A stretch of DNA of 64,000 bases, from NCBI GenBank assembly GCA_001599295.1, contig BCGN01000001.1, positions 1,302,001 to 1,366,000 of the forward strand, written 5' to 3'. The notes below the pieces were generated by a model. The model searched no databases. It was not told where the DNA came from and worked only from the letters and a program-made list of their open reading frames with translations. This document shows positions 6,980 to 60,441 of the stretch, piece after piece. A program made the translations under genes and the position numbers. Within the stretch, counting starts at the first letter, position 1. Each line of letters begins with the position of its first letter. Origin of the DNA: Sporopachydermia quercuum (Eukaryota).

Positions 6980-9237
6980 TTAGTTGAATGACTTGACAAA
7001 AGTTTCAGTAACGGACTTGAGCTTAGCCAAAAGTTCATCACTTAAAACACCCTTTTCAGCAATAGCAGAAAGAAGTTCAGTTTCGTTAGCCTTCAAGTAA
7101 GACAAGAAATCAGTTTCGAATTGACCAATCTTGTCAACAGGGATTTCATCCAAGTAACCGTTAACACCAGCGTAAATAACAGGAACTTGTTCTTCAGCAC
7201 CTAAAGGAGAGTATTGCTTCTGTTTCAACAATTGGGTTAATCTTTCACCTCTAGCCAAAGTAGATCTGGTTGAGGCATCCAAATCGGAACCGAATTGGGC
7301 GAAAGCAGCGACTTCTCTGTATTGGGCCAAGAAAAGCTTCAAGGAACCAGCGACTTGCTTCATAGCCTTGACTTGAGCAGCGGAACCGACACGGGAGACG
7401 GATAAACCGACGTTAATAGCAGGTCTAATACCTTTGTAGAAAAGTTCGGCTTCCAAGAAAATTTGACCATCAGTAATGGAAATGACATTGGTAGGAATAT
7501 AAGCAGAGACATCACCACCTTGAGTTTCAATGACAGGTAAAGCAGTCAATGAACCGCCACCGTTAGCATCGGAAAGCTTAGCAGCTCTTTCTAAAAGACG
7601 AGAGTGGAGATAGAAGACATCACCAGGGTAGGCTTCACGTCCAGGGGGACGTCTAAGCAAAAGAGACATTTGTCTGTAAGCGACAGCTTGCTTGGACAAA
7701 TCGTCGTAGATGATCAAAGCATGCTTTCCGTTATCTCTGAACCATTCACCAAGAGCACAGGCAGTGAAAGGAGCCAAGTATTGAAGAGGAGCGGCCTCAG
7801 AAGCAGTAGCAGCAACAATGATAGAATACTTAAGGGCATCTTGTTGTTCTAAAGTTTGGACAAGTTGAGCAACAGTAGATCTCTTTTGACCAACGGCAAC
7901 GTAGACACAGTAAAGCTTCTTGGATTCATCAGAACCATCGTTCCATCTCTTTTGGTTAAGAATAGTGTCTAAAGCAACAGCGGTCTTACCAGTTTGACGA
8001 TCACCAATAATCAACTCACGTTGACCACGTCCAACAGGCACTAAAGCATCAACAGCCTTCAAACCAGTTTGCATAGGTTCGAAAACGGATCTTCTGGGTA
8101 AAATGCCAGGAGCCTTCAATTGAGCTCTGGAAGTGCCAACGGATTCAATAGGTCCTTTACCATCGATGGGGTTACCTAAAGCATCAACTACACGTCCCAA
8201 CATACCAGGTCCAACTGGGACATCGACAATCTTTCCCGTTCTCTTGACAGTTTCACCTTCCACGACAAGTCTATCAGAACCGAACAAGACAATACCGACT
8301 TGGTCAGCTTCCAAGTTAAGGGCCATACCCTTGACACCAGATGAGAACTCAACTAGTTCTTCAGCTTGACAGTTGGTGAGACCGAAAACACGAGCGATAC
8401 CATCTCTGTTCTTTTGGTTAGTAACAAAACAGAAGTCAAAAATAAGTGTATTGTAGATCATTAGTCATCAATAACAACCGCAAAAATACATAGTCGATTG
8501 TTCCATTGTTCCATTGTTCCATTGAACTATTGAATCATCAATCAACAAACGAATAAAAACAATCACATATCTAGCATCCATTAAACAGTAGCGTAAATGA
8601 CAACATCAATAATCATCAAAATAATGATTCAGCACAATTTGTACATTCTTAATTGATTTATTGTTTGATTGTTGTGAATATATGTTGTCTGCTTTGAATT
8701 AGGGCGACGGCCTACATAGAAAAAAGGGGTCGGGGGTAATTCTGGCTATCCGAATCAACGTCCAACGATAAGTGAAAGTTGGCCGAGAATAAATCAAATC
8801 TGATTGAGATGGTACGGGGAAACGAGCTGAATTGACTTGCAATTGGGTTGAAGTTGCAAAGTAATTGAATCTAACAAGCACTGAATTGTAGAAATATTAA
8901 ACATACCCAACGGATAAAACACGACCGGTTTCACTGAGGTTGGCTTCTTCGGAAACACCTCTGATACGTTCTTCGAGGATGGAAGAAACTTCGGTAGCAG
9001 TAGCCTTAGCTTCAGCATAACCTCTTCTTTGAAGAGCTGGGCGGATCTAAAAGTTATTGATATTAGTAATTGAACTCAAAGACAGATCGATTATTCATAA
9101 AATTCATATTTGACCCAAATCGCAATCTCAATTCCAATTACAATTCCAATTCAAACACATACTGAAGCAACAGCAACTCTTCTAGCAGTGACACTAGCAG
9201 CGGCACGAGAAGAAACACGAACGGCAGATCTAAACAT
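6980..9237 (-). CDS. ATP1: Mitochondrial F1 ATP synthase alpha subunit (3 exons: 9237-9163, 9046-8907, 8405-6980)
   Basis: Walker A GDRQTGKT and [24 protein letters not shown]. The Arg/Ser/Ala-rich presequence [15 protein letters not shown] lies in exon 1. Introns 9162-9047 and 8906-8406 have GTATGT donors and TACTAA branch points; splicing restores [15 protein letters not shown]. Confidence 0.97.
8497..8524. repeat. Tandem 8-mer (ATTGTTCC) x3.5 within ATP1 intron 2
   Basis: Direct reading: attgttcc attgttcc attgttcc attg. Confidence 0.8.
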
Positions 9238-10866
9238 TATGAATATATAATAAATGGATGATTCAATGGTGATCTTTAATGGAATCAATGGACCATGGAT
9301 TAAAACAATTCACCGTAGTACTTACCTCTTGACAGCAAAAGAAAAGAGAAGTAGTTAACCAAGAGTGATGGAAAAAGTGGAAGAAAATCAAAAAAGGGAG
9401 TTGTCAATGGGAGAACTGGAAGAAAATCTCTAGAGTTTTCACTTCAAGCCGAAGAAGGGGTCTCAACTGTTTCAAATGGAGCCTAGAGACAGTATTCTAT
9501 GAGACTTATATAGGTACAACTTTAACGTACGTGAGAATGAGTGAATTTTTGTAAGGATGGGTAGCGGGCAGTCAAACCTTAGACCCTTTGGTTTGGAAAG
9601 TGCTTATAGTAACCGAGGAAACTTCCTTGACATTATGTATGAACTCTCATCCCTGACATTCATTCGTATACTGAAGAAACAAAGATACCTAGACCCGTTT
9701 TCAACTGCTGGTAAGAGACTCTCTGCGTCTGGTTCTAATCCAATAGTAATTCATACTCAAATCGATGGTCTCTTCATTTTATTCAATGGGGAATGCTACA
9801 TTCACTACTGGTGTATGGGTTTGTTTGCTCTTATGTAAATTCAATTGCAAATCCATGAGTTCATTCTGATAGACTTCATGCAATTTCACCACAACTTGCA
9901 TTCAGACCCTGGGTTTGTGATGAGTAAAAGTTGCAGAAAAATGATTAGATTGATTGTGAAAGATTGTCATGTCAATTTTCAATTATCTGAGAACAACTAA
10001 TAAAAATAAGAGATGTTTCTGTTGTATAGAATTAATAAAATACTTTAACCAATTAAATACATAAGTTAGAATAAATTGACAACTTGAGAGGAGGTTTTTC
10101 ATTTAGTCACCATCCAAAGTAGCATCTATTTACCTTGTGAGTAATGTTACTTCAACTTCCTTCCTTCTCCACTTGTCATTTTATCACCAGGGGCTGTTTA
10201 GCGAAATTCACTTACATACAGGTCAATGGCACTTTCAGGGGTTAAGTAACAAATGTTTTGCTAAATCTACTTTATATAATGATCGAAAGAAAGGGTCTCA
10301 TATTCCGAACCCCGGTTCTCCATGCTTGATGCGAAATGCGAAATGATCCGGAACTTAGCATCAAGTATCTTCCGATACAGAAGACAATAGACCCTTCTCA
10401 TGATCAACATATCAACCAATCAATCTTTCAGGGTGTTCAGAGCTGAAGTGTGGGTGTATTAATAAAATCTCATACCTATCCCCTACGACTAGCTTGTGTA
10501 TTCAAGTAGAATTATATGATGTTTGGGTGTTACTTATTTTGAACTACACCAATTTATTATATGATTATGCTATCAAATATTTGTTATCCAAGAACACTAT
10601 TGGCTGATGATGGAGAGCGAACCCTCAAGTATCATCCCAAACAAAAGGTGGTGTGGTTTTGAGCAAATAGTGGGACACAAGATTCTTTTAATGGGGAGGA
10701 AACAAGTGGTTGTTGTCTTGCTATATATGCCCTGTTCATTGGATGAATATACTGTGAATCACGACGAAATAGCAAGCTATAAACAGAGTAAGAAGGAATT
10801 TATTGCGGGAGAAATATTGACTCGACGATATTTTATTTCATAACATCATTGTATCAATATATCACA

Positions 10867-42435: not shown

Positions 42436-45411
42436 ATGAGTTTACAACCTGCTCATCATAAAAGCAAAGCCATAGTTGAAGGCACGAAACTCACACAGGT
42501 GAAAGAGCACCTGTTTTCTGACTTCATTTTCCATATAATCGAATCAAGAGACTTGGTCATTGACGAAATAGAAACTCTAGAGAAACTACTTCGCCTTAAC
42601 GGAGCAATAGAAGTTATCATATCAAGAGAATCCGTGTCTCAGCGAATTGCAAATGGAGCTAGAATCGATTTCAGAACTGTATCACATATAATCGCTAGTA
42701 ATATCGATTTCCCGGAATATGACGAGGCAAACGAATTGATGATTCCAGTGATTAAACCCCAATGGGTCACTGATAGCGTTGAACGTCATAGATTATGCGC
42801 ATTCAGACCTTATTCTCCCGATCCAAGATTTATTTTCTCTTCTGTATTCATCACCTGTATAGGCATACCCGATGGTGATAAAGACGCTATATATAGTGGG
42901 GTACGAGCTTTAGGTGGTCAATGGTCGGATTCGTTGACCAAGTTCACTACTCATATAGTTGCATTAGATGCCAATGAAAATGCGTGTAAATTTGCTTTAT
43001 CGCGAAATGAAACACTGGAAGAGCAAGAGAAGGTGAAAATCGTTCTACCCCATTGGATAGATGATTGCTTCAAACTAAGGAGAAAAATTGATGAAGTTCC
43101 TTATATGTTACCTAATCCTCCTTTACTTCATTTGCATTCTGTCAAATCCCGACTACGGGAGACTGTTGATCCAAAAATTGGTTCTAATTTAGATGTGTTG
43201 ATGAAACTAGATATCGGCTCTGATTATCATAAGGAATCCAAGTTTCCCAAACTACCAGATTTTCCTGAAGGTATTGAACCTTTCCTTAATGGCAGAAGAT
43301 TTTTCTTTGGAACAGATATAAATGTATCAATGCATATGAGAAGATCGCTAGAAGACGCAATTATATGTGCAGGAGGTCAAGTGGTTTGCTCAAATAACAG
43401 CACTTTCAATAAAAGCAACAAACATTGGCTGAAATCTTCTAATTGTGATGCTTATGTTGGTCAATGGAGGGAAGGCGAAGAATATGTCACTGCCTCTAGA
43501 AACAAGCTTTTTGTTGGCAATCTTAACTGGATTTATTGGATGTGTGCCCATAATCAATGGTCTGCTCCACATAAAAGATTACTACATTATCCTTATGTTA
43601 AGGGAGGTATGCCAGGAATGCAAGATTTACAAATAGCTACCGCAAATTTCTCATCTGATGCAAGATACTATCTTTACAAGTTAATTGAAGCTATGGGAGG
43701 TAGTTTTACTCGTACTTTAACCAAATCAAATACTCATCTAATATGTGCAAGAAAGTATGGTAAGAAATACGAGTTTGCTGAAAAATGGGGAGTGAAAGTT
43801 ATTAATCATTTATGGATTGAGGAGTCTTATGCTAATTGGTTTTTCCAAGATCCTTCAAAGCCTCGGTATCTACATTTCCCAAAACTTACTAATTTATCAG
43901 AGGTCGTTGGTCAAACCCAACATAATTTGCAGGTATTGAGAAAGTTCTATACAACATCAAACGAAGCCAACGATTTATCAGATGTAAGTGTTGTTCTGGA
44001 TAGTCAAGATGAGCCAGAGGATAATACTGAGAATGAATTATCTCTTCCTGTCTCAACGCATAAGGCTACATCACCTTTAAGGCCATTCAATAACAGTAAA
44101 ACTACGAACAAAGAAAACGTACCTAAATTAAAACAAAAATGTGATGTTTCTAATGCCAAACAATCTGTAGAAGTGAATGAGACTATTTCTACTACTAATA
44201 AGAAATTATCTTCAAACTTCAGCACTTCGATCACTCCTCTTCAACCGAATAATAAACATGAAAACCTTCCAAGGAACCTAACTCCTTCAGCTAATGATGA
44301 TACTTCTTCAACACCACGAGTTGGCAAAAATCCCCTGAGAAAAGCCAGAGCAGCTGCTGAGGAGAAACTGCATAATAATATCCAAGATCTGAACTTGTTC
44401 TCCAAACAGCTGAAAGGCCATCATGGTCATATTAGAAGTGACGATATGCCTTTATTACCGTTTGAAATAAAAGAAAAAGAGAAGGCAAAGGCGAAGAAAC
44501 AACTGAAAAAGGAAACAGCAACTAATAATGAAGTAAAGGCAAGCGAAGGAACATCTGTTGAGCCAGAATGTGATTTGGAGAATAATGAGAAAGAAAACAC
44601 AACTAAAGCTAAATCAGGAAGGAAAAGGAAGAGTGACACTATCAAGACAGAAGATAAGAAGAAGCAAAAGACTGAAAGCCCTGTTTCAAATGATAAATAC
44701 TTTGGTAGAATGTCTCTTCTTATCACTGGATATGAAGGAATTATTAGTCGTGTTCATACTAAATTAATGTCAGAATTAGGTATAAAGATAGTATCTAAAG
44801 TTGAACAATGTTCACATTTAGTTGCACCTCGGATTCTCCGAACTGAGAAATTTCTCTGTGCTTTAGCTTTTGCTCCTGATATTCTGAGTACTAAGTTCTT
44901 ATCTACTCTATTTAATATATTCAATGATAATGACAATGAGGTTGAATCTGTTGTCAAGGAATTAGATAAACGATTGCTCAAGAGTAATTTGCTAAAGGAA
45001 TTTGCTATTACTGACAATGAAAATGAGAAGGAGTTGAATTTGAAGATAGGGGAGACGGTTGAACGTGCTAAAAAACTTGCTGGAAGTAAAAAGAAGTTGT
45101 TTGATGGCTACACTTTCAATGTGACTCCTGGGGTTCCTGGTGGGTTTGCTGTTGTACAGCATATCATAAAAACACATGGCGGTGAAGCCTTCAAAGTGAA
45201 AACCTCAGTAAGCACGAAATTCGAATCATGTAAAAATGGTAAGTGTATTATGATCTCAAAGCCTAAAGATAGAGCATATTATGATAGTTTCAAAGCTACA
45301 ATGAAGGAAAAAGCCCAATCGTGTATGGTTTACGATTGGAGTTGGGTATGTAATTCTATTCTACATATGAAGGTTTTGGAAGAGAATGAATCAATAGATT
45401 TGAAACTATAG
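42436..45411 (+). CDS. RTT107: Multi-BRCT DNA-damage scaffold (Rtt107/Brc1)
   Basis: N-terminal BRCT repeats (RPYSPDPRFIFS, VLPHWIDDC, VGNLNWIY, LLHYP, INHLWIEESY) and a C-terminal BRCT pair (HLVAPRILRTEKFLCAL). ATG at 42436. Confidence 0.85.
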   Translation: MSLQPAHHKSKAIVEGTKLTQVKEHLFSDFIFHIIESRDLVIDEIETLEKLLRLNGAIEVIISRESVSQRIANGARIDFRTVSHIIASNIDFPEYDEANELMIPVIKPQWVTDSVERHRLCAFRPYSPDPRFIFSSVFITCIGIPDGDKDAIYSGVRALGGQWSDSLTKFTTHIVALDANENACKFALSRNETLEEQEKVKIVLPHWIDDCFKLRRKIDEVPYMLPNPPLLHLHSVKSRLRETVDPKIGSNLDVLMKLDIGSDYHKESKFPKLPDFPEGIEPFLNGRRFFFGTDINVSMHMRRSLEDAIICAGGQVVCSNNSTFNKSNKHWLKSSNCDAYVGQWREGEEYVTASRNKLFVGNLNWIYWMCAHNQWSAPHKRLLHYPYVKGGMPGMQDLQIATANFSSDARYYLYKLIEAMGGSFTRTLTKSNTHLICARKYGKKYEFAEKWGVKVINHLWIEESYANWFFQDPSKPRYLHFPKLTNLSEVVGQTQHNLQVLRKFYTTSNEANDLSDVSVVLDSQDEPEDNTENELSLPVSTHKATSPLRPFNNSKTTNKENVPKLKQKCDVSNAKQSVEVNETISTTNKKLSSNFSTSITPLQPNNKHENLPRNLTPSANDDTSSTPRVGKNPLRKARAAAEEKLHNNIQDLNLFSKQLKGHHGHIRSDDMPLLPFEIKEKEKAKAKKQLKKETATNNEVKASEGTSVEPECDLENNEKENTTKAKSGRKRKSDTIKTEDKKKQKTESPVSNDKYFGRMSLLITGYEGIISRVHTKLMSELGIKIVSKVEQCSHLVAPRILRTEKFLCALAFAPDILSTKFLSTLFNIFNDNDNEVESVVKELDKRLLKSNLLKEFAITDNENEKELNLKIGETVERAKKLAGSKKKLFDGYTFNVTPGVPGGFAVVQHIIKTHGGEAFKVKTSVSTKFESCKNGKCIMISKPKDRAYYDSFKATMKEKAQSCMVYDWSWVCNSILHMKVLEENESIDLKL

Positions 45412-45745
45412 TACCGGGATAAATGAATAATTATGGAGAATAGATTTGGAACGGAAGTATTTAGGATACAATGAATAACTGTGATATTAATTACTATGTA
45501 TTCCTCATCTATTAGTACTACGAATATAAATACATGCCCTTATATGAATAGTAGTAGTTAGTAGTAGCGACAACTCTTTGGGACTCTACATTATAGAACA
45601 TGATAATTTAATGGAAATCGAGGAATAATATAACAAGAAATGGAAATTCAAGTTTTTATTTAATATAAGTGAAGAGTTCAATTACTGAACTAGGCCACTA
45701 CATACCAATATTAGCAACCAGACAGCCTTCAAGGGATTACGTTAT

Positions 45746-48656
45746 TTAAGCATCGTAGGTAGTGGCAGAAACGTTACCACCTCTTCCAGTCCAGTTGATG
45801 TGAATATCCTTACCAGCAGGTAAAGATTTGGAAGCAAATTCAGGTAGAACGCGGAAAGTATGAGCACCAAAGTAATCACGTTGAGCTTGCAACAAGTTAG
45901 CTGGTAATCTAGCAGATCTGTAACCATCGTAGAAAGACAAGGCAGTTGCAAAAGCAGGAGTAGGAATACCCCAAGTGAAAGATTGGGCAACAATCTTTCT
46001 CCATGATTCTTGAGCTTTGGAGATAGCCTCATTGAAGAAAGGATGGAATAACAAGTTTTCTAGGTCAGGATTCTCCTTGTAAGCCTTAGTGATTTCACCA
46101 AGGAAAACCGATCTGATGATACAACCGCCTCTCCACATAAGAGCAATAGCAGCATTGTTTAATTTCCAGCCGTATTCCTTAGCAGCTTCACGGATGAGCA
46201 TGAAACCTTGAGCATAAGAAATAATCTTGGAAGCATACAAAGCTTGTTCTAATTGATCAATGAATTCCTTCTTGTCGCCAGTGAATTTAGGAACAGTTGG
46301 TCCTTCTAAAACCTTAGAAGCTTCAACTCTTTCACCCTTAATAGCAGACAAACATCTGGAGAAGACGGCTTCACCAATAAGAGTAACAGGCATACCTAAG
46401 TCCAAAGCACTGATAGCAGTCCACTTACCAGTACCCTTTTGACCAGCGGTATCCAGGATCTTTTCAACTAAAGGAGTTCCATCCTCATCATTGTATTTCA
46501 AAATGTCACTGGTGATTTCAATCAAGAAAGAGTCTAAAACACCCTTGTTCCAGGTAGTGAAAACTTCACCAATTTCATTATCAGATAAACCAGCGCCTCT
46601 CTTCAATAAATCATAAGCTTCACAAATCAATTGCATATCACCATATTCAATACCATTATGAACCATCTTAACATAGTGACCAGAACCAGCTTCACCAACC
46701 CAGTCGCAGCATGGTTCACCATCAGTTTTAGCGGCGATAGCTTGGAAAATTTTCTTAATGTGGGGCCAAGCATCAGGATGTCCACCAGGCATCAAAGAAG
46801 GACCATATCTAGCACCTTCTTCACCACCGGAAACACCAGAACCGACAAACAGAATTCCTTGTTCTTTTAGTTCCTCGTATCTTCTGTTAGTGTCAGGGAA
46901 ATGTGAATTACCACCATCAATGATGATATCACCCTTATCCAAGAAAGGTAATAATTGTTGAATGAAGTTGTCAACAGCGGCACCTGCTTTGACCAACAAG
47001 ATGATTCTTCTGGGTCTCTTCAAGTTGTCAACTAATTCCTTTATGGAGTGAGCGCCAATAATTGATTTTCCCTTTGCTTCATGTTCCAGAAAATTATCAA
47101 CCTTAGAAACAGTACGGTTGTAAGCAACAACAGTGAAACCGTGGTCAGCGGCGTTGAGGATCAAGTTTTGACCCATAACGGCCAAACCAATAAGACCAAT
47201 ATCGCCACTATAAAAAATTTGTTAGTAATCCGATAAGCTTTTTTAATCATTCTGCTAATAAATAGAGAGTTATTGAAAGACAAAATCACCTTGAAGGTTT
47301 CGCAGCCAACTTCACCAGCATTTAATCAAATATGATTTGTGAGGATCTATCTACCTACTATCACATACATAGCACTCATCTTCTTCTCAGGGTTGAGATG
47401 CCTTAGCACAGAAGACACTCTATTCATTTTCATCCAAATATCAATGCCTATCTTATGCTAAACTGCTCATCAAACGAATGAGAAAGACATGGATGGGTAT
47501 GTATAATTTAACACATAACATCAAAAATAAAAATAAAACATCAATTGCAAATTTCAACTCGTCGTATTATAGCCATTCAACCCCCATATCCTTATATCAT
47601 CTCATCGCCATAACCTTTTACTTTCTTTCATCCACTATAAATATAATCCCACTTTTATCTTTCAACCTCCAGCTCCAAAAATCCGTGGGGGGTTATTCTT
47701 CATTTTATCATGTTCCTCGCTTCACCAAAAGAATCCAGTTTAAGCACAGCACGTGATAGTAGTTTACATCTCCTAAATACCCTCTCCCATAGTTTTAAAG
47801 TTCCGGTACAATTAAAATAAGTATGTCTTTCTTTGTACGGAAGAGGGATACACAAATTGATTTATGGAGCAAAGAAGAGAGAGGGCGAGTAAGGAAAAAG
47901 AATGAGCCGGAAGAAAGTGAAGATGAGAGAGGCATAAATATGAAAGATGGGGTATTTTGATGTAACTAAAAAGAGTATGAGAAGGTATAACTTGATATAA
48001 ATAAGTAGGTTTGTCGAGAGAAAAAGATGAAGAATTCACGCAAGGTATAAGAACACTTAGGCGATATGCAGTATACTATGTTGCATGCATATGACGAAGG
48101 AGTTGAAAATTCAATGAGTGTGATAAAGGATATGAGCACATCATAAAGTCAATGGTATGGTATGTATTGTCAAGAGGAGCAGATAATAGGGTATTATAAT
48201 AGGATGAATTTTTCTGACCATGAGAGTTTGAGGCTTTTGAATGGTGATAAAATATGCACAATTGATAATCGATCCATATGCTTTTGTTCAGAGGATAACG
48301 TCAAGGCTGAAAGAAGTAGGAGCATGGCCATATTAACAATTGAAAGAAGAATGCACAGTGCGCAACTCTTACATAAAAATATGAACATTCTTCATCGAAA
48401 TTCTTTCTGAACAATTCCTAACCGTAATCACATAACATATCCTTCTGATGACTATTCAATTGTCAAGGATTCATCTATCTTATGCAAAACAGCTATTGGC
48501 AATCCAATTGAATCCCAATCTTCTAATAGTCAATTCATTTACCATTCAGTTATCAAGAACAACAAAAACATACTAGCCAGCAATGTTTTTTTCAAGCTAT
48601 CAAACCTCTCAATATCATCTTCAATCAAAAATTTCAACATACGAAGGAGCAGACAT
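45746..48656 (-). CDS. GND1: 6-phosphogluconate dehydrogenase, cytosolic isoform (exon 1 48656-48643; intron 48642-47208; exon 2 47207-45746)
   Basis: Spliced MSAPSGDIGLIGLAVMGQNL, GHYVKMVHNGIEYGDMQ and QAQRDYFGAHTF. Donor TC|GTATGT, branch TACTAAC and acceptor TATAG|T; strong codon bias. Confidence 0.95.
47369..47433 (-). CDS. GND1: Alternative first coding exon of GND1 encoding a PTS2 peroxisomal targeting signal
   Basis: ATG AAA ATG AAT AGA GTG TCT TCT GTG CTA AGG CAT CTC AAC CCT GAG AAG AAG ATG AGT GCT AT|GTATGT translates to MKMNRVSSVLRHLNPEKKMSA(I). The phase-2 donor matches the exon 2 acceptor. Confidence 0.8.
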
Positions 48657-49789
48657 ATTGTGAACGCTTTTTATTTTAAATATACTCTTGAACAATATTC
48701 TATTCTAAATTAATTGCTATCGCTTTATTACAGACAACAACAACTACAACAACAAGTATCTCAATCTATATCTCCAAAATATATATCAACATTCATTCTG
48801 AAAGAAAGGAAAAGGAGTTTATTCTTCCTTGAAAATTAGGATACTACTTAACTTATAAAGAAGGGAGATGGTAGTGAGTGTGCCGAAATAAGGTTCTTCA
48901 TTATAAAGTTCATTTCAAATGTATACGTAACAGTGATTTTTAGTAATGAGAGCAAACCGGAAATGATATTATGAGGAAAAACAAGTATCATTAGTCATTG
49001 AGGATGTGAATGCTGTGTGATCTATAACCTGTAGATGATGATGAGTACTTTATGCAAAAGATGGAGCAATTGGTTGAAGCAAAAACTTTCTGTTGGTGAT
49101 ATATACTAATGTTTATCATGCAGCTTAATCAGAGTGATTCTTTATGTGAAGACGTATTGATGTGCGGACCTATTGGTGTGGTTATGCAGTGCTAACAGCT
49201 GCTGATGCATATGAAGGAACGAGAAGTAATTGATGAGATGGTTGCACGTTGAGATGAAAATGTGAGTATTTTGTTTAATTAGTGGACCAAGAAGAGCAGT
49301 AAACCAAGCATAATATATATTTTACATTTTGAGAAGCTGTCTGTGAGATGGAACTAATATCTAGTGAAAATCATTACCAGTCATACGGGAAATAAGGAGC
49401 TTGTTGTTCATGGTGCATCCCTTCATTCCTTGCGTTGACGTTTGATCTAAGTAATTTCATGATTTGACAAGATGCAATAGAGGATCGCAACAATATCAGA
49501 TCAGATCTCTGAAAAGGATTATACGAAGATTCCAACTTTTCAATCCATTNTGACAGCTTAACGCTGAAATGTTATAATCTATTGGAACATAGATCGTTAA
49601 TCCTAATCTGAATCACCTCCCACACATCTAGTTCAGGAACGGAACAATACATGATATTTTACACTCCAGACTTGCGACAATTACAGAAAATACCTAGGGA
49701 ACCTTTCGATTACCAATTTTTGCCTTTGCAAGAAGATGCTGACCTGCCAATTGTTATCCAACTACTTCATACAATAATATTTATCAGAT

Positions 49790-49816
49790 AAATGGTCTAA
49801 ATGGTCTAAATGGTCT
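49790..49816. repeat. Tandem 9-mer (AAATGGTCT) x3 in the GND1 upstream intergenic region
   Basis: Direct reading. Confidence 0.8.
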
Positions 49817-51109
49817 AGAAGCCATCCTTCTGGGTACTTTTGCATAATCTCCGTTATTACTACAATTTCCGAACTGTTTTCATTCACCAGTATCCGTACA
49901 GTATTTATTGCTTGACAGTGAACCAGTTTATTGACTCAAGAAGAACAAATAACGAGGCAAAAACTCCATAAGCCTTAACAATAAGACTTGCCAATTCCAA
50001 CTACTACAAAATCATTCCACCTGAGTGTATCCTCTGCTCCAGCTAATACTATAACCCCCTTTTATCTACGTAGATCGACCTATTGCCTTTACATATGATG
50101 CATTTATCCATTACCTTACAAATTCGTGCATAATTATTCTCCAACAAAATTCGGTTTGGGCTTCCGTACATCAAATCTCAATCTCCTGTCCTTGTTTTCT
50201 GATTTCCGTTTTCCTACAAGAGTGGGGGGTCTCGTTTTGATCTCTTCAGGGGTAACCTACAGATGAGAATACTTTGCAAAAAATTTGAATTCAACCGAAT
50301 ATTCATAGTAGATCTATAAAGTTATCATCAGCATCACCAAGCAAAACAAGTCTTGCCTTTAGTCTCATCATTATCTACGATTTTGACCTACGAGAACTGC
50401 ATATTATCATCCACCATTTCAATCATTCCTTTAGTCTGGATCACATCATCAAGCATTCACAATGTATTTCGGAAACGATAAAAAAACAGCTATACTAATT
50501 CCGGAAATAATGTATACTCGCAGACTTCTCTCTTCCGTATAAATCTCCCCTCTGCAGAGAAAAATAATATGAAGACCGGAGAAGGATTTATTGACATAAA
50601 ACGTTCTATGCAGCATGTTCAAAGCCGGTTTTTAGTGATAAATGGTAACAGTGCTGTGAATTCATGGCTTGGAATTGACAGATGATTCATTCTTCTTTCT
50701 CGTATTAATGTGTTTTGTTTCTTTTTGAATCAAGGCCCACTCAAATCTCTTGCAATAATTCAGGTTTAATAAATATAGGTATGGCTAACACTAAATTCAC
50801 TTATTCAATCTTAAATAGGAAGTGTCCGGAAGTATCATGATCGGGCAAACGTCAGCCGGAAAAAGTAACTGTGGCACCTTACTTATTCTGAATGTTTTTA
50901 TTTTATTTTTTTATGTTTCGATTCATTTGATTCCGATGGATTTTTCTATTGTTCCTTAACGGAATAGATGTTTACAACCTACAGTAGAGGAAGAGAATTA
51001 GATCACGTGATACCCAATTGCTAGTCATCAGCTATTACTTAGTCGATACAGCAACTGAATAGTAAAAGTAATGGAATGAGGATGGTATTATGAGACTATT
51101 ATTATCTAT

Positions 51110-54100
51110 CTAAACTTTAGTTGTATGATTATCCTCCAATTTATCTTCGCCGTCAGAGATTAGGACAGTTGGAAGCTGGACCTCTAATTCATTTGACTGT
51201 TTCTTTTCTTGACCTCCAGATTCGCTTTCACTTTCCAATGGCACATCTTCAGTATCTTCTAGAGCAGCATCATTTTCTTGATTTTGATCTTCCTCATACT
51301 CCTTTGGTATATTAGGTAACTCTTTCGATAGTCTTTTCTCAGAACCTTCAACTCGAATGCTCGAGGAGTTTATCTTTATTCCCAATGGACTAATATTTCT
51401 CGGTCTAGTAAGGTTTCTTACATTCAAACGACCACTTCTTTCTGGTGACGATAAAGATAATTGTTTCAATTCTGGCTCAACTGTCAATTGTTGTATAGAT
51501 ATTGGTCCCCCTACATTCCCACCTTCAATATTTAAAGTATTAGTTGAGTTATTAAGTACCACACTCGAAGGACGACTATTTGATCGACTTCCTGGTCTTG
51601 AATGTCCTTCTGGTTTATATCCTTCTGGTTGTCGTAAAGCTGACTGCAGTCCATTTGAATCATTTTTCAATCTTTTGATATAATTCTCTTTGCATTTAGC
51701 CAAAACATTGGAGAACATAGCTTCACAATTAAATACTAAATCTTTCATCAACGAGGTAAACACAATATAATCATTGATTGTTACTGCTTGTGATAACATA
51801 CTATTAACTTCATTATCATCATTTCCTGTAACTAATTTCCTCACCCTGTCATTATATAAGAATTGATTATGAGGTCTTATGATCAATCTTGAGATTCTAC
51901 CTTTCTCACATATTTCTTCAAACTTTGATACTCTTAAAGACGCTATTTCAGACTCAGATAACTCAGTTTGCGTATTATTACTTTCCTTAGTTAAGATCTC
52001 GGTCAAGTGATATAAATGGTCACACATTAGCTTCAAGGAAATAACATTAGTCCATGACAGTTGCCCCATTTGCTTGGTAAGCAATTGCAGCCTTGTAGCT
52101 AAAGAAATATCTCTTGCATAAATAGATTTGAACATTTCGTAATTGGTGTAAGGTATCAAAGGATCAGGTAGCTCTAATAGGAATAATTTTAATGCCCCCA
52201 CAATAGTTGATGTTGGAATACCAGAGTAGACTTCAACATCAAACCCATAATCAATAATAGGTTTACCATCATTGTCCTCCATTTTTGGTTTTGAATTCCC
52301 AGGTAAATTCAAAGATTCCATAATTCTTTGTTTCAATCGATACACTACTGATAGATTTGCTTCTAAAGGATAACACCAAGCTTTTTCTAGTCCTCTGGTA
52401 AATGTACCGTCCAGTTCGGCAGCGCTCTTACTGAATTTTCCTTCTCCTTCATCCTTTGAAGATGCCACTTTTTCGTCAAAATCTTGTTTCTCCTTTCCCT
52501 TACTAATATCATCTTGCTTGACATGTTCAAACGGTTTGTCTTTATTTGGTTTAGTATCCACGTAACTTACGTTGGCAAGATACTCTAAAGTCTTCACTAG
52601 AAATTCAGGAGCATAGAAATGATCATCAATAATGAAATGATCATTTAACTCGTCGATAGGGATATCTGCAGGTGTTTTCTTGGTTAATGCAAAATAATGA
52701 TGCTGTTGGCGTTTAACTAAGATACTCAATTCAACACCAAACAGTTGATTCTTCAACCTAGTGGAAGGCTTTTTCAATTCACCTGTATCTTCCTTTCCTA
52801 GTTCTTCTGTATCAATGTCTACCGTCCGAGTATCATTATAGTAATCGGAATACACTGTTTCATTAGGAACAAAATAACCTGTGCATCTAGTATACATAAA
52901 ATTAGAAAACTGAAGATCAAGATTCAATCTTCTGAATACTCCTTGAGCTAATGCTTCAATTTCTCTAAATCCCGGTTGAATCTTGACAATTAGCGTATCG
53001 TGAATTTGTTTAAACACAGTGGCCAAAGCTTTAATTCTGGTTAGCTCAAATTTCTCCATAGACGAATAATGAGCTAGTATTATCTGTTCCAGGTCTTGTC
53101 TTTGCTTTTCTAATTCAATTAAGGCTGTTTGATACTGAACATCAGCTTCTTTAACAGCTTTCCGTATCACATCACTAGATTGCTGCTTCCCTTTAGCGAT
53201 TTGATTAGCCTTTGCTTTGATTGAAGACGCAATTGACTCAAAATAACTACCAAACTTCACGTTATCGCTATTTGCCTCACTGTTCAATGTTGATGCTTCT
53301 GAATATGACGATTCAGAGTCACTATCATCAGTCTCATCAGCACTCTCACCAGGTTTCTGAGTAGCTTTTTCTGCTGTGGCTATAGAAGACTCTTTATGTT
53401 TGAATTGATTTATTACACCTGATAAGCCAAATGTAGAGTCTGTCCATTCATAGCGTAGTTTGGGATCAAAATGACGATATTTTGTTGAGATCCCGCCAAT
53501 CAATGGCTTCAGAAATCCATAAGACACTAAATCAGAAGCAAATTTCTCTCTCCAAGCAACTGATTGATTGGTCTTACGAAGAAGATCACAACCTCTGATA
53601 TATAATAGTATATCTGAACCAGTAGAAACATTATGAGTTACAGTTCCTAAAGAGAATAGTTGATTATACCGGAAATCACCTCTAGGAGTTGTTTGAAGCA
53701 AGTTGTATAGAACTCTTGAGAATTCGTTCAGTGATAATGATTCCACACCTATTTTGATAAGTTTCGCACTAGGATTTTCTCTATAAGCTTTCAAATCAAA
53801 ATCACTTGATAAATCATTGGGATCATTAGTATTTTGCTCTTTTGTAACATCAGGTTTTGATGATGCTTGAAAGCGACCAGTTAAAGATTTTTGTAGTGCC
53901 CCAAAAGAACCCTTTTTAATTTCATGTATGCTGTTCCTCCTTTCAGTCAAGGGCTGCTTTTCGATCAGATCCAATTCAAGTATATTCTGCTGAACTGGTG
54001 ATACTGTGTCAGATTCTAACTCTTCTGGCTGCTTTTCGGGTATTGCTGCCAGATGAACAGAGTCTTCTAGCTCTTCGCATTTTGCTAAATATCTTTTACG

Positions 54101-57483: not shown

Positions 57484-60441
57484 TTATGTATGTTTGACAG
57501 ATAGAGCAGGTTCAAAATTTGGCAATACACAAATCCTGAAACAATCTCTGGAACAAAGAGCCTTTGCAGTGTGAATCATGTTACAATCTTGTTCGTTGTA
57601 TTGCAAATTCAATTGATACATCTTGTTCCATTGAAACAGAGTGTTCAATGGAGTAGTGACAGTTTTAGCTGTTTTCCGATCAATGAACTTCCTTATAATT
57701 TTCCATATATTGAAAAACGAAAATGATATCTTTGGATATAAACCAGTTGGTCTATGGAAAAATCCTTTGAGTATTTTCTTGGTGATAGACAGGAATGAAG
57801 CAAATTCACCAAATGAGTCTTTATGGTTCAGAAGAAAATCTAACTGTCCAATTACAATATATTGACTCACTTTATCTTGTGACCCGTCTTTGGTAACAAT
57901 TTCCCAGTATTTCTCAATACTTGAGAGGACTGATCTAGTTGGAATATTTGAGTTTAGCAGCAAATGCCAATATATCTGATCCGTTTCATTTGATGTACTA
58001 GTCAATAGTGACGCATCGGTGAATTTATCTACCTGGTATAACTGTACCAATTGATATCTAATGCTTTGCTCTGATATTCTCAAAACTTCACCGAAGGACT
58101 TTCGTGGGACTTTCTTTCTCAGAAATGAATTAAGCGAGTTCTGATATGGCACTTTGAGGAAATACTGTTGTATAACATAAGCTTCAGCCATATAAACGCA
58201 TTCTAAGCTCAATTCATAGTTGGAACTGAAAGACAATGTTCGATCATCATTATTAGGGTCATGTAGATACTCAGCAAGAACCGTTATTCTGTTCAGAATA
58301 TCATCGACATCAGTTTCAGGATCCAGTTCAAATAAATCATGTTCTAAGGGTGTGACAGCGCTAAGAATCTGCCTGAATATTTGTGTCAAGCTGTCATTAT
58401 CTATTTTTTTCTTTTTAATGAAAATCCAATGCTTTAGAGAATTTATCCATATACCAATTATATGTGATGCACGGAATCCTCCACTGGAGACACTTGTTTT
58501 CACCTTTTGGGCCAACAAGTTCCACTCATCAATCCTCTGTAAATCATGTTCTATCACGGAAGAGTAAAGAGGCCAAAATTCAGGGCAGTTTCTGATACAC
58601 TTTGTTACCAGTTCTTCTTTGACGTTTATCTGTAGATTCAAATTTAAAATTATCTCGATATAAATATCAAACAATAACTCATTATTGCATTGTTTGCTGC
58701 CCCAAAACAGTTGAAGAACGATCAGCAAAGTTTTCACGTTCATTGTATCATCAAATGACCTTATATATCTTGTTGACATGAAACCATCGATAGTGTTGCA
58801 AACTTGACAATCAAAATATTCTTCTATTGACATTTCTATTTCTTCGTTCGACTTGCAGCATATTGATATCCAATATGCTATTTCCTTCTTAAATGACACT
58901 CCTAGAAAATGTAAAACACCAATCACTAGTAGTAGTTTTCCCTCTTTTGTTTCAATATTTGTCAGAAACATTCTCATATCCTTATATAACGGATATCTAT
59001 AAGGATCATCATCAATATATCTTGAACAATGGAAATCGCCTGTTCTATATTGATAATCGAGTGCACGTTCATGGTCTAGCCAATTACTAATAGATCTCTC
59101 AAAACTCTCGTTATTATGGATCTCAACAGCTTCTAATATAGATACATCTTTATTCGTACAATCATTTTCCTCAATTTCATAAGAAAATCCACTTTCAATC
59201 AACCCAGTTGTGTATTCCATATTCCAAGAGTTAGTTTTCCAGACGTCTGATCGATCAATAGAAGAATACACATACTTCATAAACATTTCATCATAATATT
59301 TCTTATCTATCTCCCCAAGTCCAGTCATACTATCCGGTTCAAAGAAATTCACTTGCAATAGACTGAATACTACCTGTTCACTTATTTCAAAATAGCCTGC
59401 ATCACGATATATTGATACAACATCGAATAAAAATGTCAGATGGGCAGCATCTGACCATTTGCTGCTCCAGTGGTCACAAAATTTCGTAAGAGTATCAAGA
59501 AGCCAAGAGAAACTCACCTTGAGTATATCAACACTTCGAGCAAGAAACCCACAGTAACTATCAACCAACTTGGGACTAATAACTACTCTGTGACATAGAT
59601 GAAACCATTTTTCGTTGAGTTGATCAAAATCCAAAAAGTACTCTGCCAATCGAAGATAATCATGTATAAATTGTTTATCATTGATTTGATTGTCTGAATC
59701 TTTGAAAGCTCTTTCATAAACAGAATAAATGATCTCTCTTTCTGCTTCTAAGGTTCTAGATTGATACCTAGTTACACAATGATACTTCTCCTGTTGTAAC
59801 TTGATCATCTCTTTCCACAGATTGACATCAAGAACATTGGCATCAATCTTAGCTTGTAGAACCGCTATTTTTGATCTAATCTTCTCGCTGGTGTAACCAT
59901 CATAATCAAAAGTATTCGATTCACTGACAGGTTTGGTTTTAGGTTCTCTGCTTAACCGTTTATAATCTGGCTCATTGTCATTTTCATCACCACTATCGAT
60001 ATTAGGCAAATTGATTATATCTTTCTTATCATTGAACAGAATTTCAGATCTTGGCATAGTAGCAGTAGAAGATGCTTCAAGCTTTTCTTTTGCCACACGT
60101 TTCCCACTTCTGTTTCTATCATTGTTATTGTTATTTCTATTATTTGCATAGTGTAGTGATTTATTATTATCTTGTCTAATACGCTTAGGAAGTGATTTAT
60201 CTCTTGTTATGTCTGTATAGAAATTGTCTTCGTTGACTAGAACATTTGATGTATTTCTGTAGGATTGAACGGAGCTAAAGTTGCTCTTCGGCTGAACATT
60301 GATACTACTACTATCATTATTAGTACTGGTCCTATTGTTTTTATGACCGTCCTTTTCTTTCTTCTTGTCTTTTGAACTCTTCGAACACTTTGAACTCTTC
60401 TTTTGATTATTAGAAAAGGAAAAGCTTGGAAATGAACTCAT
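57484..60441 (-). CDS. Probable NRDE2/Nrl1-like spliceosome/exosome-associated HAT-repeat protein (divergent)
   Basis: MSSFPSFSFS plus a Lys-rich N-terminus, DVNLWKEMIKLQ, YRDAGYFEISEQVVFSLLQVNFF, WLDHERAL and DDDPYRYPLYKDM resemble NRDE-2 family motifs. ATG at 60441. Confidence 0.6.
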   Translation of the reverse strand: MSSFPSFSFSNNQKKSSKCSKSSKDKKKEKDGHKNNRTSTNNDSSSINVQPKSNFSSVQSYRNTSNVLVNEDNFYTDITRDKSLPKRIRQDNNKSLHYANNRNNNNNDRNRSGKRVAKEKLEASSTATMPRSEILFNDKKDIINLPNIDSGDENDNEPDYKRLSREPKTKPVSESNTFDYDGYTSEKIRSKIAVLQAKIDANVLDVNLWKEMIKLQQEKYHCVTRYQSRTLEAEREIIYSVYERAFKDSDNQINDKQFIHDYLRLAEYFLDFDQLNEKWFHLCHRVVISPKLVDSYCGFLARSVDILKVSFSWLLDTLTKFCDHWSSKWSDAAHLTFLFDVVSIYRDAGYFEISEQVVFSLLQVNFFEPDSMTGLGEIDKKYYDEMFMKYVYSSIDRSDVWKTNSWNMEYTTGLIESGFSYEIEENDCTNKDVSILEAVEIHNNESFERSISNWLDHERALDYQYRTGDFHCSRYIDDDPYRYPLYKDMRMFLTNIETKEGKLLLVIGVLHFLGVSFKKEIAYWISICCKSNEEIEMSIEEYFDCQVCNTIDGFMSTRYIRSFDDTMNVKTLLIVLQLFWGSKQCNNELLFDIYIEIILNLNLQINVKEELVTKCIRNCPEFWPLYSSVIEHDLQRIDEWNLLAQKVKTSVSSGGFRASHIIGIWINSLKHWIFIKKKKIDNDSLTQIFRQILSAVTPLEHDLFELDPETDVDDILNRITVLAEYLHDPNNDDRTLSFSSNYELSLECVYMAEAYVIQQYFLKVPYQNSLNSFLRKKVPRKSFGEVLRISEQSIRYQLVQLYQVDKFTDASLLTSTSNETDQIYWHLLLNSNIPTRSVLSSIEKYWEIVTKDGSQDKVSQYIVIGQLDFLLNHKDSFGEFASFLSITKKILKGFFHRPTGLYPKISFSFFNIWKIIRKFIDRKTAKTVTTPLNTLFQWNKMYQLNLQYNEQDCNMIHTAKALCSRDCFRICVLPNFEPALSVKHT

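Follow-up and report, generated by a model that had tools for sequence, protein, structure and literature searches.

A candidate alternative first exon encoding a type 2 peroxisomal targeting signal in the 5' intron of the Sporopachydermia quercuum 6-phosphogluconate dehydrogenase gene

The GND locus and its two 5' exons

We analyzed a 64-kb stretch of contig BCGN01000001.1 of the budding yeast Sporopachydermia quercuum, referred to here as the window (all coordinates are window-based), which contains a 6-phosphogluconate dehydrogenase (GND) gene at 45746-48656 on the minus strand. The product of GND exon 2 is 78-86% identical to budding yeast Gnd proteins, with the top match from Nadsonia fulvescens (86%), and the matched Gnd proteins carry the Pfam domains PF03446 and PF00393. 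The long 5' intron of GND holds a 65-nucleotide (nt) segment, referred to here as the mini-exon, that encodes a peptide of the peroxisomal targeting signal type 2 (PTS2) kind and that may serve as an alternative first exon. The features of the locus are:

45746-47207, minus strand: GND exon 2, the 6-phosphogluconate dehydrogenase coding sequence from GDIGLIGLAVMG through the TAA stop
47208-47209 and 47221-47227, minus strand: acceptor AG and branch point TACTAAC, respectively, both common to the two introns
47208-47362, minus strand: body of the proximal intron, which holds in-frame stops, the common branch point and the common acceptor
47363-47368, minus strand: proximal 5' splice site GTATGT, in the same phase as the distal donor, bounding a 161-nt intron
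47369-47433, minus strand: PTS2 mini-exon, 65 nt, ATG start, phase 2
47395-47421, minus strand: PTS2 nonapeptide RVSSVLRHL, read from the spliced-frame translation
47434-48636, minus strand: intron segment between the two first exons, 1203 nt, the putative site of a promoter and transcription start
48637-48642, minus strand: distal 5' splice site GTATGT, bounding a 1435-nt intron that ends at 47208
48643-48656, minus strand: distal exon 1, a 14-nt micro-exon (ATG plus 11 nt, phase 2) encoding MSAP plus two bases of the next codon

Joining the distal exon 1 to position 47207 yields a 491-amino-acid (aa) protein that starts MS-x-P-x-GDIGLIGL, the canonical N-terminus of many relatives, and this exon matches the first exon of L001, a yeast-like contig from a metagenome, at 13 of 14 nucleotides. 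Together, these observations argue that the 1435-nt intron is real, and our data indicate that the 14-nt distal exon 1 is a real exon. It starts with ATG TCT and has an A at -3; an ATG TCT start is typical of highly expressed yeast genes. Upstream of the start of exon 2 (47207), TACTAAC at 47227-47221 is followed by TTTTTTATAG at the junction. No other junction-consistent candidate intron in the window is as long as the distal one; the others measure 69, 127, 138 and 752 nt, in addition to the 161-nt proximal intron.

The mini-exon reads ATG AAA ATG AAT AGA and so on to GCT AT, which is followed by GTATGT at 47368-47363. The original prediction, which had described an ATG-started minus-strand segment of 65 nt lying 161 nt from exon 2, was right in all of its coordinates. 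Its claim that splicing from 47369 to 47207 is in frame also holds, as the joined sequence gives an uninterrupted frame of 508 aa (compared to 491 aa for the canonical protein), and the donor is, as it had stated, the same as that of exon 1 in both hexamer (GTATGT) and phase (2 at both). The distance from the proximal donor to the branch point, 141 nt, is ordinary for the window, and the 161-nt proximal intron is of ordinary size among the window candidates. GTATGT is mildly enriched in the window, with 40 sites compared to 30.5 expected and 5 of 100 shuffles reaching 40. Pairing between the 5' splice site and the branch point (i.e., a zipper) that would favor the distal donor was no better than in shuffles (z = +0.38; 25 of 40 as good).

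Three in-frame ATGs lie within the mini-exon. ATG1, at 47433, has a T at -3. ATG2, at 47427, is preceded by an A at -3 and lines up with the M-N-R that begins Wickerhamomyces-type leaders. ATG3, at 47379, also has an A at -3 and is located downstream of the signal, where it opens M-S-A-I followed by GDIG. Given that this M-S-A start resembles that of canonical Gnd, the proximal exon could be the principal first exon of the gene, such that transcripts starting between 47427 and 47379 would use ATG3 to make the cytosolic enzyme, slightly longer transcripts would add the PTS2, and the distal 14-nt exon would be minor or condition-specific. Intron size is consistent with this arrangement, as 161 nt is typical and 1435 nt is the extreme of the window. 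We nevertheless consider it quite improbable, since it is the distal exon that yields the conserved MS-x-P-x-GDIG N-terminus, that has the ATG TCT start with A at -3 and that is matched at 13 of 14 nt by the L001 exon 1, whose intron is also long (approximately 800 nt). Long introns, moreover, exist in the window. A gene similar to ATP synthase alpha (ATP1-like; 8411-9240, minus strand) apparently has its 752-nt intron after a 25-codon exon resembling a mitochondrial presequence, and thus long 5' introns are found in other highly expressed genes of the window.

Several further observations concern the same gene. A 20-nt direct repeat (47448-47467 and 48475-48494, 18 of 20 positions identical) has one copy 15-34 nt ahead of ATG1 of the mini-exon and the other approximately 150 nt into the long intron, and is not part of a longer duplication. 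We also considered that the proximal M-S-A and GTATGT might be a duplicate of exon 1 and dropped this possibility, as the serine codons differ (TCT and AGT) and the flanks are unalignable. In the 3' untranslated region (UTR) of GND, past the TAA at 45746 and between two convergent genes, GTATGT (45705), TACTAAC (45563) and an AG 18 nt beyond form a 167-nt intron-like unit (45539-45705, minus strand), which may be due to chance or may be a 3'-UTR intron. Lastly, three CTG codons in GND are located where relatives have a consensus leucine (DHFL, GILF and EKIL), and CUG therefore appears to be read as leucine in the host organism.

The mini-exon leader and the Gnd leaders of other budding yeasts

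The nonapeptide RVSSVLRHL fits the PTS2 consensus (R/K)-(L/V/I)-x5-(H/Q)-(L/A) as printed in PMC7214817. The signal arginine is residue 5 counted from ATG1 and residue 3 counted from ATG2, which places the motif near the N-terminus, the position asked of a PTS2. RVSSVLRHL also fits the stricter Petriv-type pattern.

We compared this leader to those of the 120 best Gnd relatives listed. At least 17 residues precede the GDIGLIGLAVMG block in 28 of these 120 relatives, and the motif R-[LVIM]-x5-[HQAT]-[LAIVMF], a loosened form that was set after the sequences had been inspected, is present in 26 of the 28 long-leader relatives. The strict motif, R-[LVI]-x5-[HQ]-[LA], is matched by 16 of the 120. 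We then derived an ungapped scoring matrix from the relatives' leader cores (25 distinct ones, with the window left out) and scored all 14-residue windows in the six-frame translation of the 64 kb (open segments of at least 14 residues). The mini-exon peptide MNRVSSVLRHLNPE ranks first of 57,237 14-mers, with 15.7 bits compared to 10.2 bits for the runner-up. The reading of RVSSVLRHL as a PTS2, made in the original prediction from the consensus, is thus strengthened by its rank on the relatives' matrix. The prediction had also cited a PTS2-bearing Gnd isoform made from intronic sequence in Candida albicans, and the available text of PMC7491326 confirms such a report. Its claim to novelty was overstated, since a PTS2-like leader has already been annotated or called in 26 of the 120 best listed relatives under the loosened motif (16 of 120 under the strict one).

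The likeness to particular relatives extends beyond the motif. The window leader, M-N-R-V...H-L-N-P, has both the M-N-R start and the H-L-N-P end of two listed relatives, P0044 (from Wickerhamomyces ciferrii) and P0043, and the distance from H-L to GDIG is 9 residues in all three. Our data indicate that the mini-exon leader is homologous to the Gnd leaders of other budding yeasts and that its PTS2 peptide is not the product of chance. The protein collection searched contains no close relative of this yeast, with best matches of 86% identity for Gnd and 43-45% for Vps53. In a quick single-gene FastTree analysis the window sequence forms a long branch beside Wickerhamomyces (SH-like support of 99), a rough placement, as the sample consisted of best-scoring matches only and Saccharomycetaceae, the CUG clade and Pichiaceae were absent. 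Because the lineage is very diverged, the intact motif together with its AUG and an in-phase consensus donor argues for selection.

Possible linkage of the mini-exon to GND transcripts

Published accounts of PTS2-bearing Gnd in budding yeasts rely on splicing from exon 1, either to a cassette (Y. lipolytica) or to a proximal 3' splice site (C. albicans), and these are the sole mechanisms published for budding yeast GND as far as the available text of the sources extends. The mini-exon is hardly likely to belong to either type, which the sequence of the locus contradicts at several points. An in-frame TAG is located 9 codons upstream of the ATG at 47433. Of 59 AG dinucleotides tried as acceptors for exon 1, none gave an in-frame junction with the signal intact. 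Only three give a full-length frame (47419, 47401 and 47374), and all three lie within the mini-exon and lose the signal arginine. The sole TACTAAC within 48800-47150, which is also the sole CTRAY in this interval, is the one at 47227-47221; no CTRAY branch site is present upstream of the mini-exon in 48800-47228, and hence there is no second branch-point-like site. In addition, the proximal intron contains stops before exon 2. As a positive control, 4 of 39 AGs upstream of the leader in L001 join exon 1 in frame with the signal kept, which is what the published model requires. Since a TAG lies upstream, a second branch site is lacking and 0 of 59 acceptors keep the signal, the mini-exon, judged on its sequence, cannot be a C. 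albicans-type extension or a Y. lipolytica-type in-frame cassette, and the exclusion of a cassette or alternative acceptor in the original prediction stands. Given that there is no in-frame reading from exon 1, translation of a PTS2 isoform must begin at an AUG of the mini-exon itself.

The leaders of relatives differ from the window leader in a second respect. All 26 motif-bearing leaders of the relatives have a T-N pair after the motif, and 25 of them end in serine or arginine. At the DNA level, the T-N pair of L001 is the branch-point sequence ACTAAC read as codons, and the final serine of its leader is the acceptor AG plus the first base of the exon; presumably the T-N pair marks the branch point in the other leaders as well. 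The window leader is without the T-N pair and ends at its own donor, with 161 nt containing stops between it and the main exon. L001 itself came from a metagenome scan that returned 584 relatives, of which 80 loci were kept. Inspection covered the four loci with at least 70% identity (L001, L002, L009 and L010), the other 76 having 62-69% identity; of these four, L001 alone is yeast-like, genomic and accompanied by upstream sequence that can be used. The GND locus of L001 (L001:3188-4000) has the classical layout of a 14-nt exon 1, an intron of approximately 800 nt and a leader that continues directly into the main exon. Its branch point reads as V-T-N and its motif ends in H-V rather than H-L.

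Two donors that compete for one branch point could also operate on transcripts from the upstream promoter, with the proximal GTATGT (47368) chosen as an alternative 5' splice site in place of the distal one. The messenger RNA would then retain approximately 1.3 kb of intron as its leader and would give a trace of the PTS2 isoform through leaky scanning or reinitiation or, as another outcome, would be unproductive and targeted for decay, thereby tuning the output of GND. The two donors are each a perfect GTATGT hexamer and share a single branch point, and the proximal donor lies at an ordinary distance from it (141 nt). Very low output can suffice, as the C. albicans peroxisomal isoform is reported at approximately 0.1% of the mRNA (PMC7491326, available text). 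We regard this alternative as unlikely, since the exon 1 AUG would open a short upstream open reading frame (uORF), and at least 13 further AUGs within the 300 nt before 47433 would make translation of the PTS2 frame extremely inefficient. It also leaves unexplained the conserved, good-context AUG that directly precedes the signal.

We judge it slightly more probable than an even chance that the mini-exon is an alternative first exon with an internal transcription start that gives a PTS2 isoform of Gnd, and this same judgment covers, jointly, the use of one branch point and one acceptor by the two alternative 5' exons of GND. Under this arrangement, the 14-nt distal exon 1 would lead to the ordinary cytosolic enzyme. 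The 65-nt proximal mini-exon, which carries the ancient PTS2 leader of fungal Gnd, would lead to a minor isoform extended by 17 residues (or by 15 with a start at ATG2). The simplest source of the latter would be a transcript that begins within the long intron, approximately 35-200 nt upstream of 47433, and that loses only the 161-nt intron. The start of the PTS2 isoform is probably ATG2, because of its good context and its alignment with the M-N-R of Wickerhamomyces-type leaders, while use of ATG3 would give an untargeted enzyme. Pex7 would bind the PTS2 isoform and promote its import into peroxisomes, where it would supply NADPH. We infer the internal transcription start, the use of the splice junction and the Pex7-dependent import. 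We reasoned that a perfect donor at an optimal distance from the only branch point is presumably in use, since the intron of this highly expressed gene would otherwise hold a costly decoy.

Several results weigh against this proposal. The closest AUGs on the upstream side are those at 47470, 47490 and 47516, so a transcript start more than approximately 35 nt upstream would place short uORFs ahead of the PTS2 AUG. On the gene strand of 47369-51109 we found no consensus TATA (TATA[AT]A[AT][AG]), and neither CCTCGG/CCGAGG nor elements of the oleate response element (ORE) type. CCTCGG and CCGAGG are sites of fatty-acid regulators. With these scans blank, there is no positive mark of an internal promoter. 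Furthermore, a 14-column HMMER profile of the leader placed the mini-exon second of 2,752 segments with a borderline E-value of 0.19. The top match of that search (5078-5031), an open segment of 16 residues that has no AUG, was taken to be due to chance.

These blank promoter scans, together with the lost in-frame link to exon 1, are what would be expected if the mini-exon were an evolutionary relic of an ancestral alternative-3'-splice-site layout whose expression has been lost. A loss of this kind has been reported for O. polymorpha and Saccharomycetaceae, and the PTS2 isoform has been lost at least twice among budding yeasts (PMC7491326, available text). The lineages reported there as having lost the isoform keep no candidate PTS2, according to the same part of that source. 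In S. quercuum, by contrast, the mini-exon retains an open frame and a strict motif, with two AUGs ahead of the latter and a consensus donor in the sole workable phase. These features are intact despite a very long branch, and the peptide has the best leader-like score of the entire window. We therefore consider a relic improbable.

If the mini-exon is an alternative first exon, it may also record a change in how peroxisomal Gnd is made. We hypothesized that an ancient splicing switch was rebuilt as a transcriptional switch in the S. quercuum lineage, a tentative proposal to which we give a little less than an even chance. In such a history, the leader would have gained its own 5' splice site and lost all in-frame links to exon 1. 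An independent promoter in the 1.4-kb intron would time the expression of peroxisomal 6-phosphogluconate dehydrogenase (6PGDH), for example on fatty acids, and ATG3 would let intron-started transcripts also yield some cytosolic enzyme.

Elsewhere around the locus, scans of 45000-51200 returned no Rfam match at E <= 1 and no tRNA gene. The region upstream of GND (48657-51109) comprises 2.45 kb without an open reading frame (ORF) of at least 150 aa, a tRNA or an Rfam match, and contains one ambiguous base (N at approximately 49550) and a 9-nt tandem repeat (49778-49820). Farther away, a 985-aa ORF at 57484-60441 on the minus strand contains an NRDE-2 domain (Pfam PF08424, E = 9e-24).

Dual targeting of Gnd in fungi

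Strijbis et al. 2012 reportedly described alternative 3' splicing of C. albicans GND with a PTS2, as related in PMC7491326, PMC3798809 and PMC7214817. In the available text of Hurtig et al. (PMC7491326), C. albicans GND has alternative 3' splice sites, the proximal one of which adds the PTS2, and junction reads for PTS2-including isoforms are reported for L. starkeyi, C. jadinii and C. albicans (alternative 3' site) as well as for Y. lipolytica (exon skipping). The S. quercuum locus shares with the C. albicans type the gene, the position of the 5' intron and a PTS2 leader between exon 1 and the main exon, and would share the pairing of a minor peroxisomal isoform with a major cytosolic one. 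In the C. albicans type, however, the leader runs directly into the main exon and is reached from exon 1 via the proximal acceptor, while the mini-exon ends at a donor of its own, is followed by a 161-nt intron containing stops, lacks the T-N pair and has no in-frame route from exon 1. The exon of Y. lipolytica is similar in that the PTS2 has a small exon to itself, which possesses its own donor and is either retained or skipped (PMC7491326, available text). That exon is an internal cassette joined to exon 1, whereas in the window there is no acceptor or branch site before the mini-exon and the frame from exon 1 is closed.

Mechanisms other than splicing from exon 1 are also known. In U. maydis, pgd1 contains a functional PTS2 upstream that is made by non-AUG initiation (Kremp et al., PMC7214817, available text). 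The enzyme is the same, and its N-terminal PTS2 extension arises from the choice of start codon and not from a second gene, as would be the case for S. quercuum GND; the mini-exon likewise offers a downstream in-frame AUG (47379) that bypasses the signal. U. maydis differs in relying on one transcript with near-cognate codons (AGG AUU), compared to two ordinary AUGs on an alternative exon in the window. One of the metagenomic loci, L009:1-220 (on a transcript-sized contig of 1735 nt), encodes 6PGDH with RLTSLSAHL in frame upstream of the AUG and no AUG between the preceding stop and RLTSLSAHL, which resembles the cryptic, non-AUG PTS2 layout of U. maydis. A likeness in mechanism to an internal transcription start comes from the NADP-isocitrate dehydrogenase of Aspergillus nidulans (table entry in PMC3798809), where alternative transcription starts decide whether the targeting signals are included, as we propose for GND. 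There, the dual or triple targeting concerns a different enzyme and different signals, and no alternative first exons with a common acceptor are described in that entry.

The signal, the enzyme and the logic of dual targeting are thus already known, and the architecture is what differs. For 6PGDH, the available portions of a 2013 review (PMC3798809) and of a 2022 review give only splicing and non-canonical initiation. In the literature searched, we found no report of an architecture with its own AUG, its own donor, a common acceptor and no exon 1 link, a point on which the supplement of PMC7491326 may bear.

Dual targeting of pentose-phosphate enzymes is a source of NADPH inside peroxisomes, and the route taken by Gnd varies among fungi, including an alternative 3' splice site, exon skipping and non-AUG initiation. 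Since this biology is established elsewhere, the surprise to a specialist is modest. If our proposal is true, a conserved signal on an alternative first exon would be a further route and a third architecture for dual targeting in budding yeasts. It would show that the wiring can easily change around a signal that remains fixed, as does its distance to the Rossmann fold. Furthermore, a constant, low-level ratio of splice isoforms would have been turned into a separately regulatable isoform, such that the peroxisomal enzyme could be regulated apart from the abundant cytosolic form. At 65 nt, the mini-exon is, as first predicted, too short for ordinary ORF-based annotation, and missing it would leave the peroxisomal proteome of S. 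quercuum under-called.

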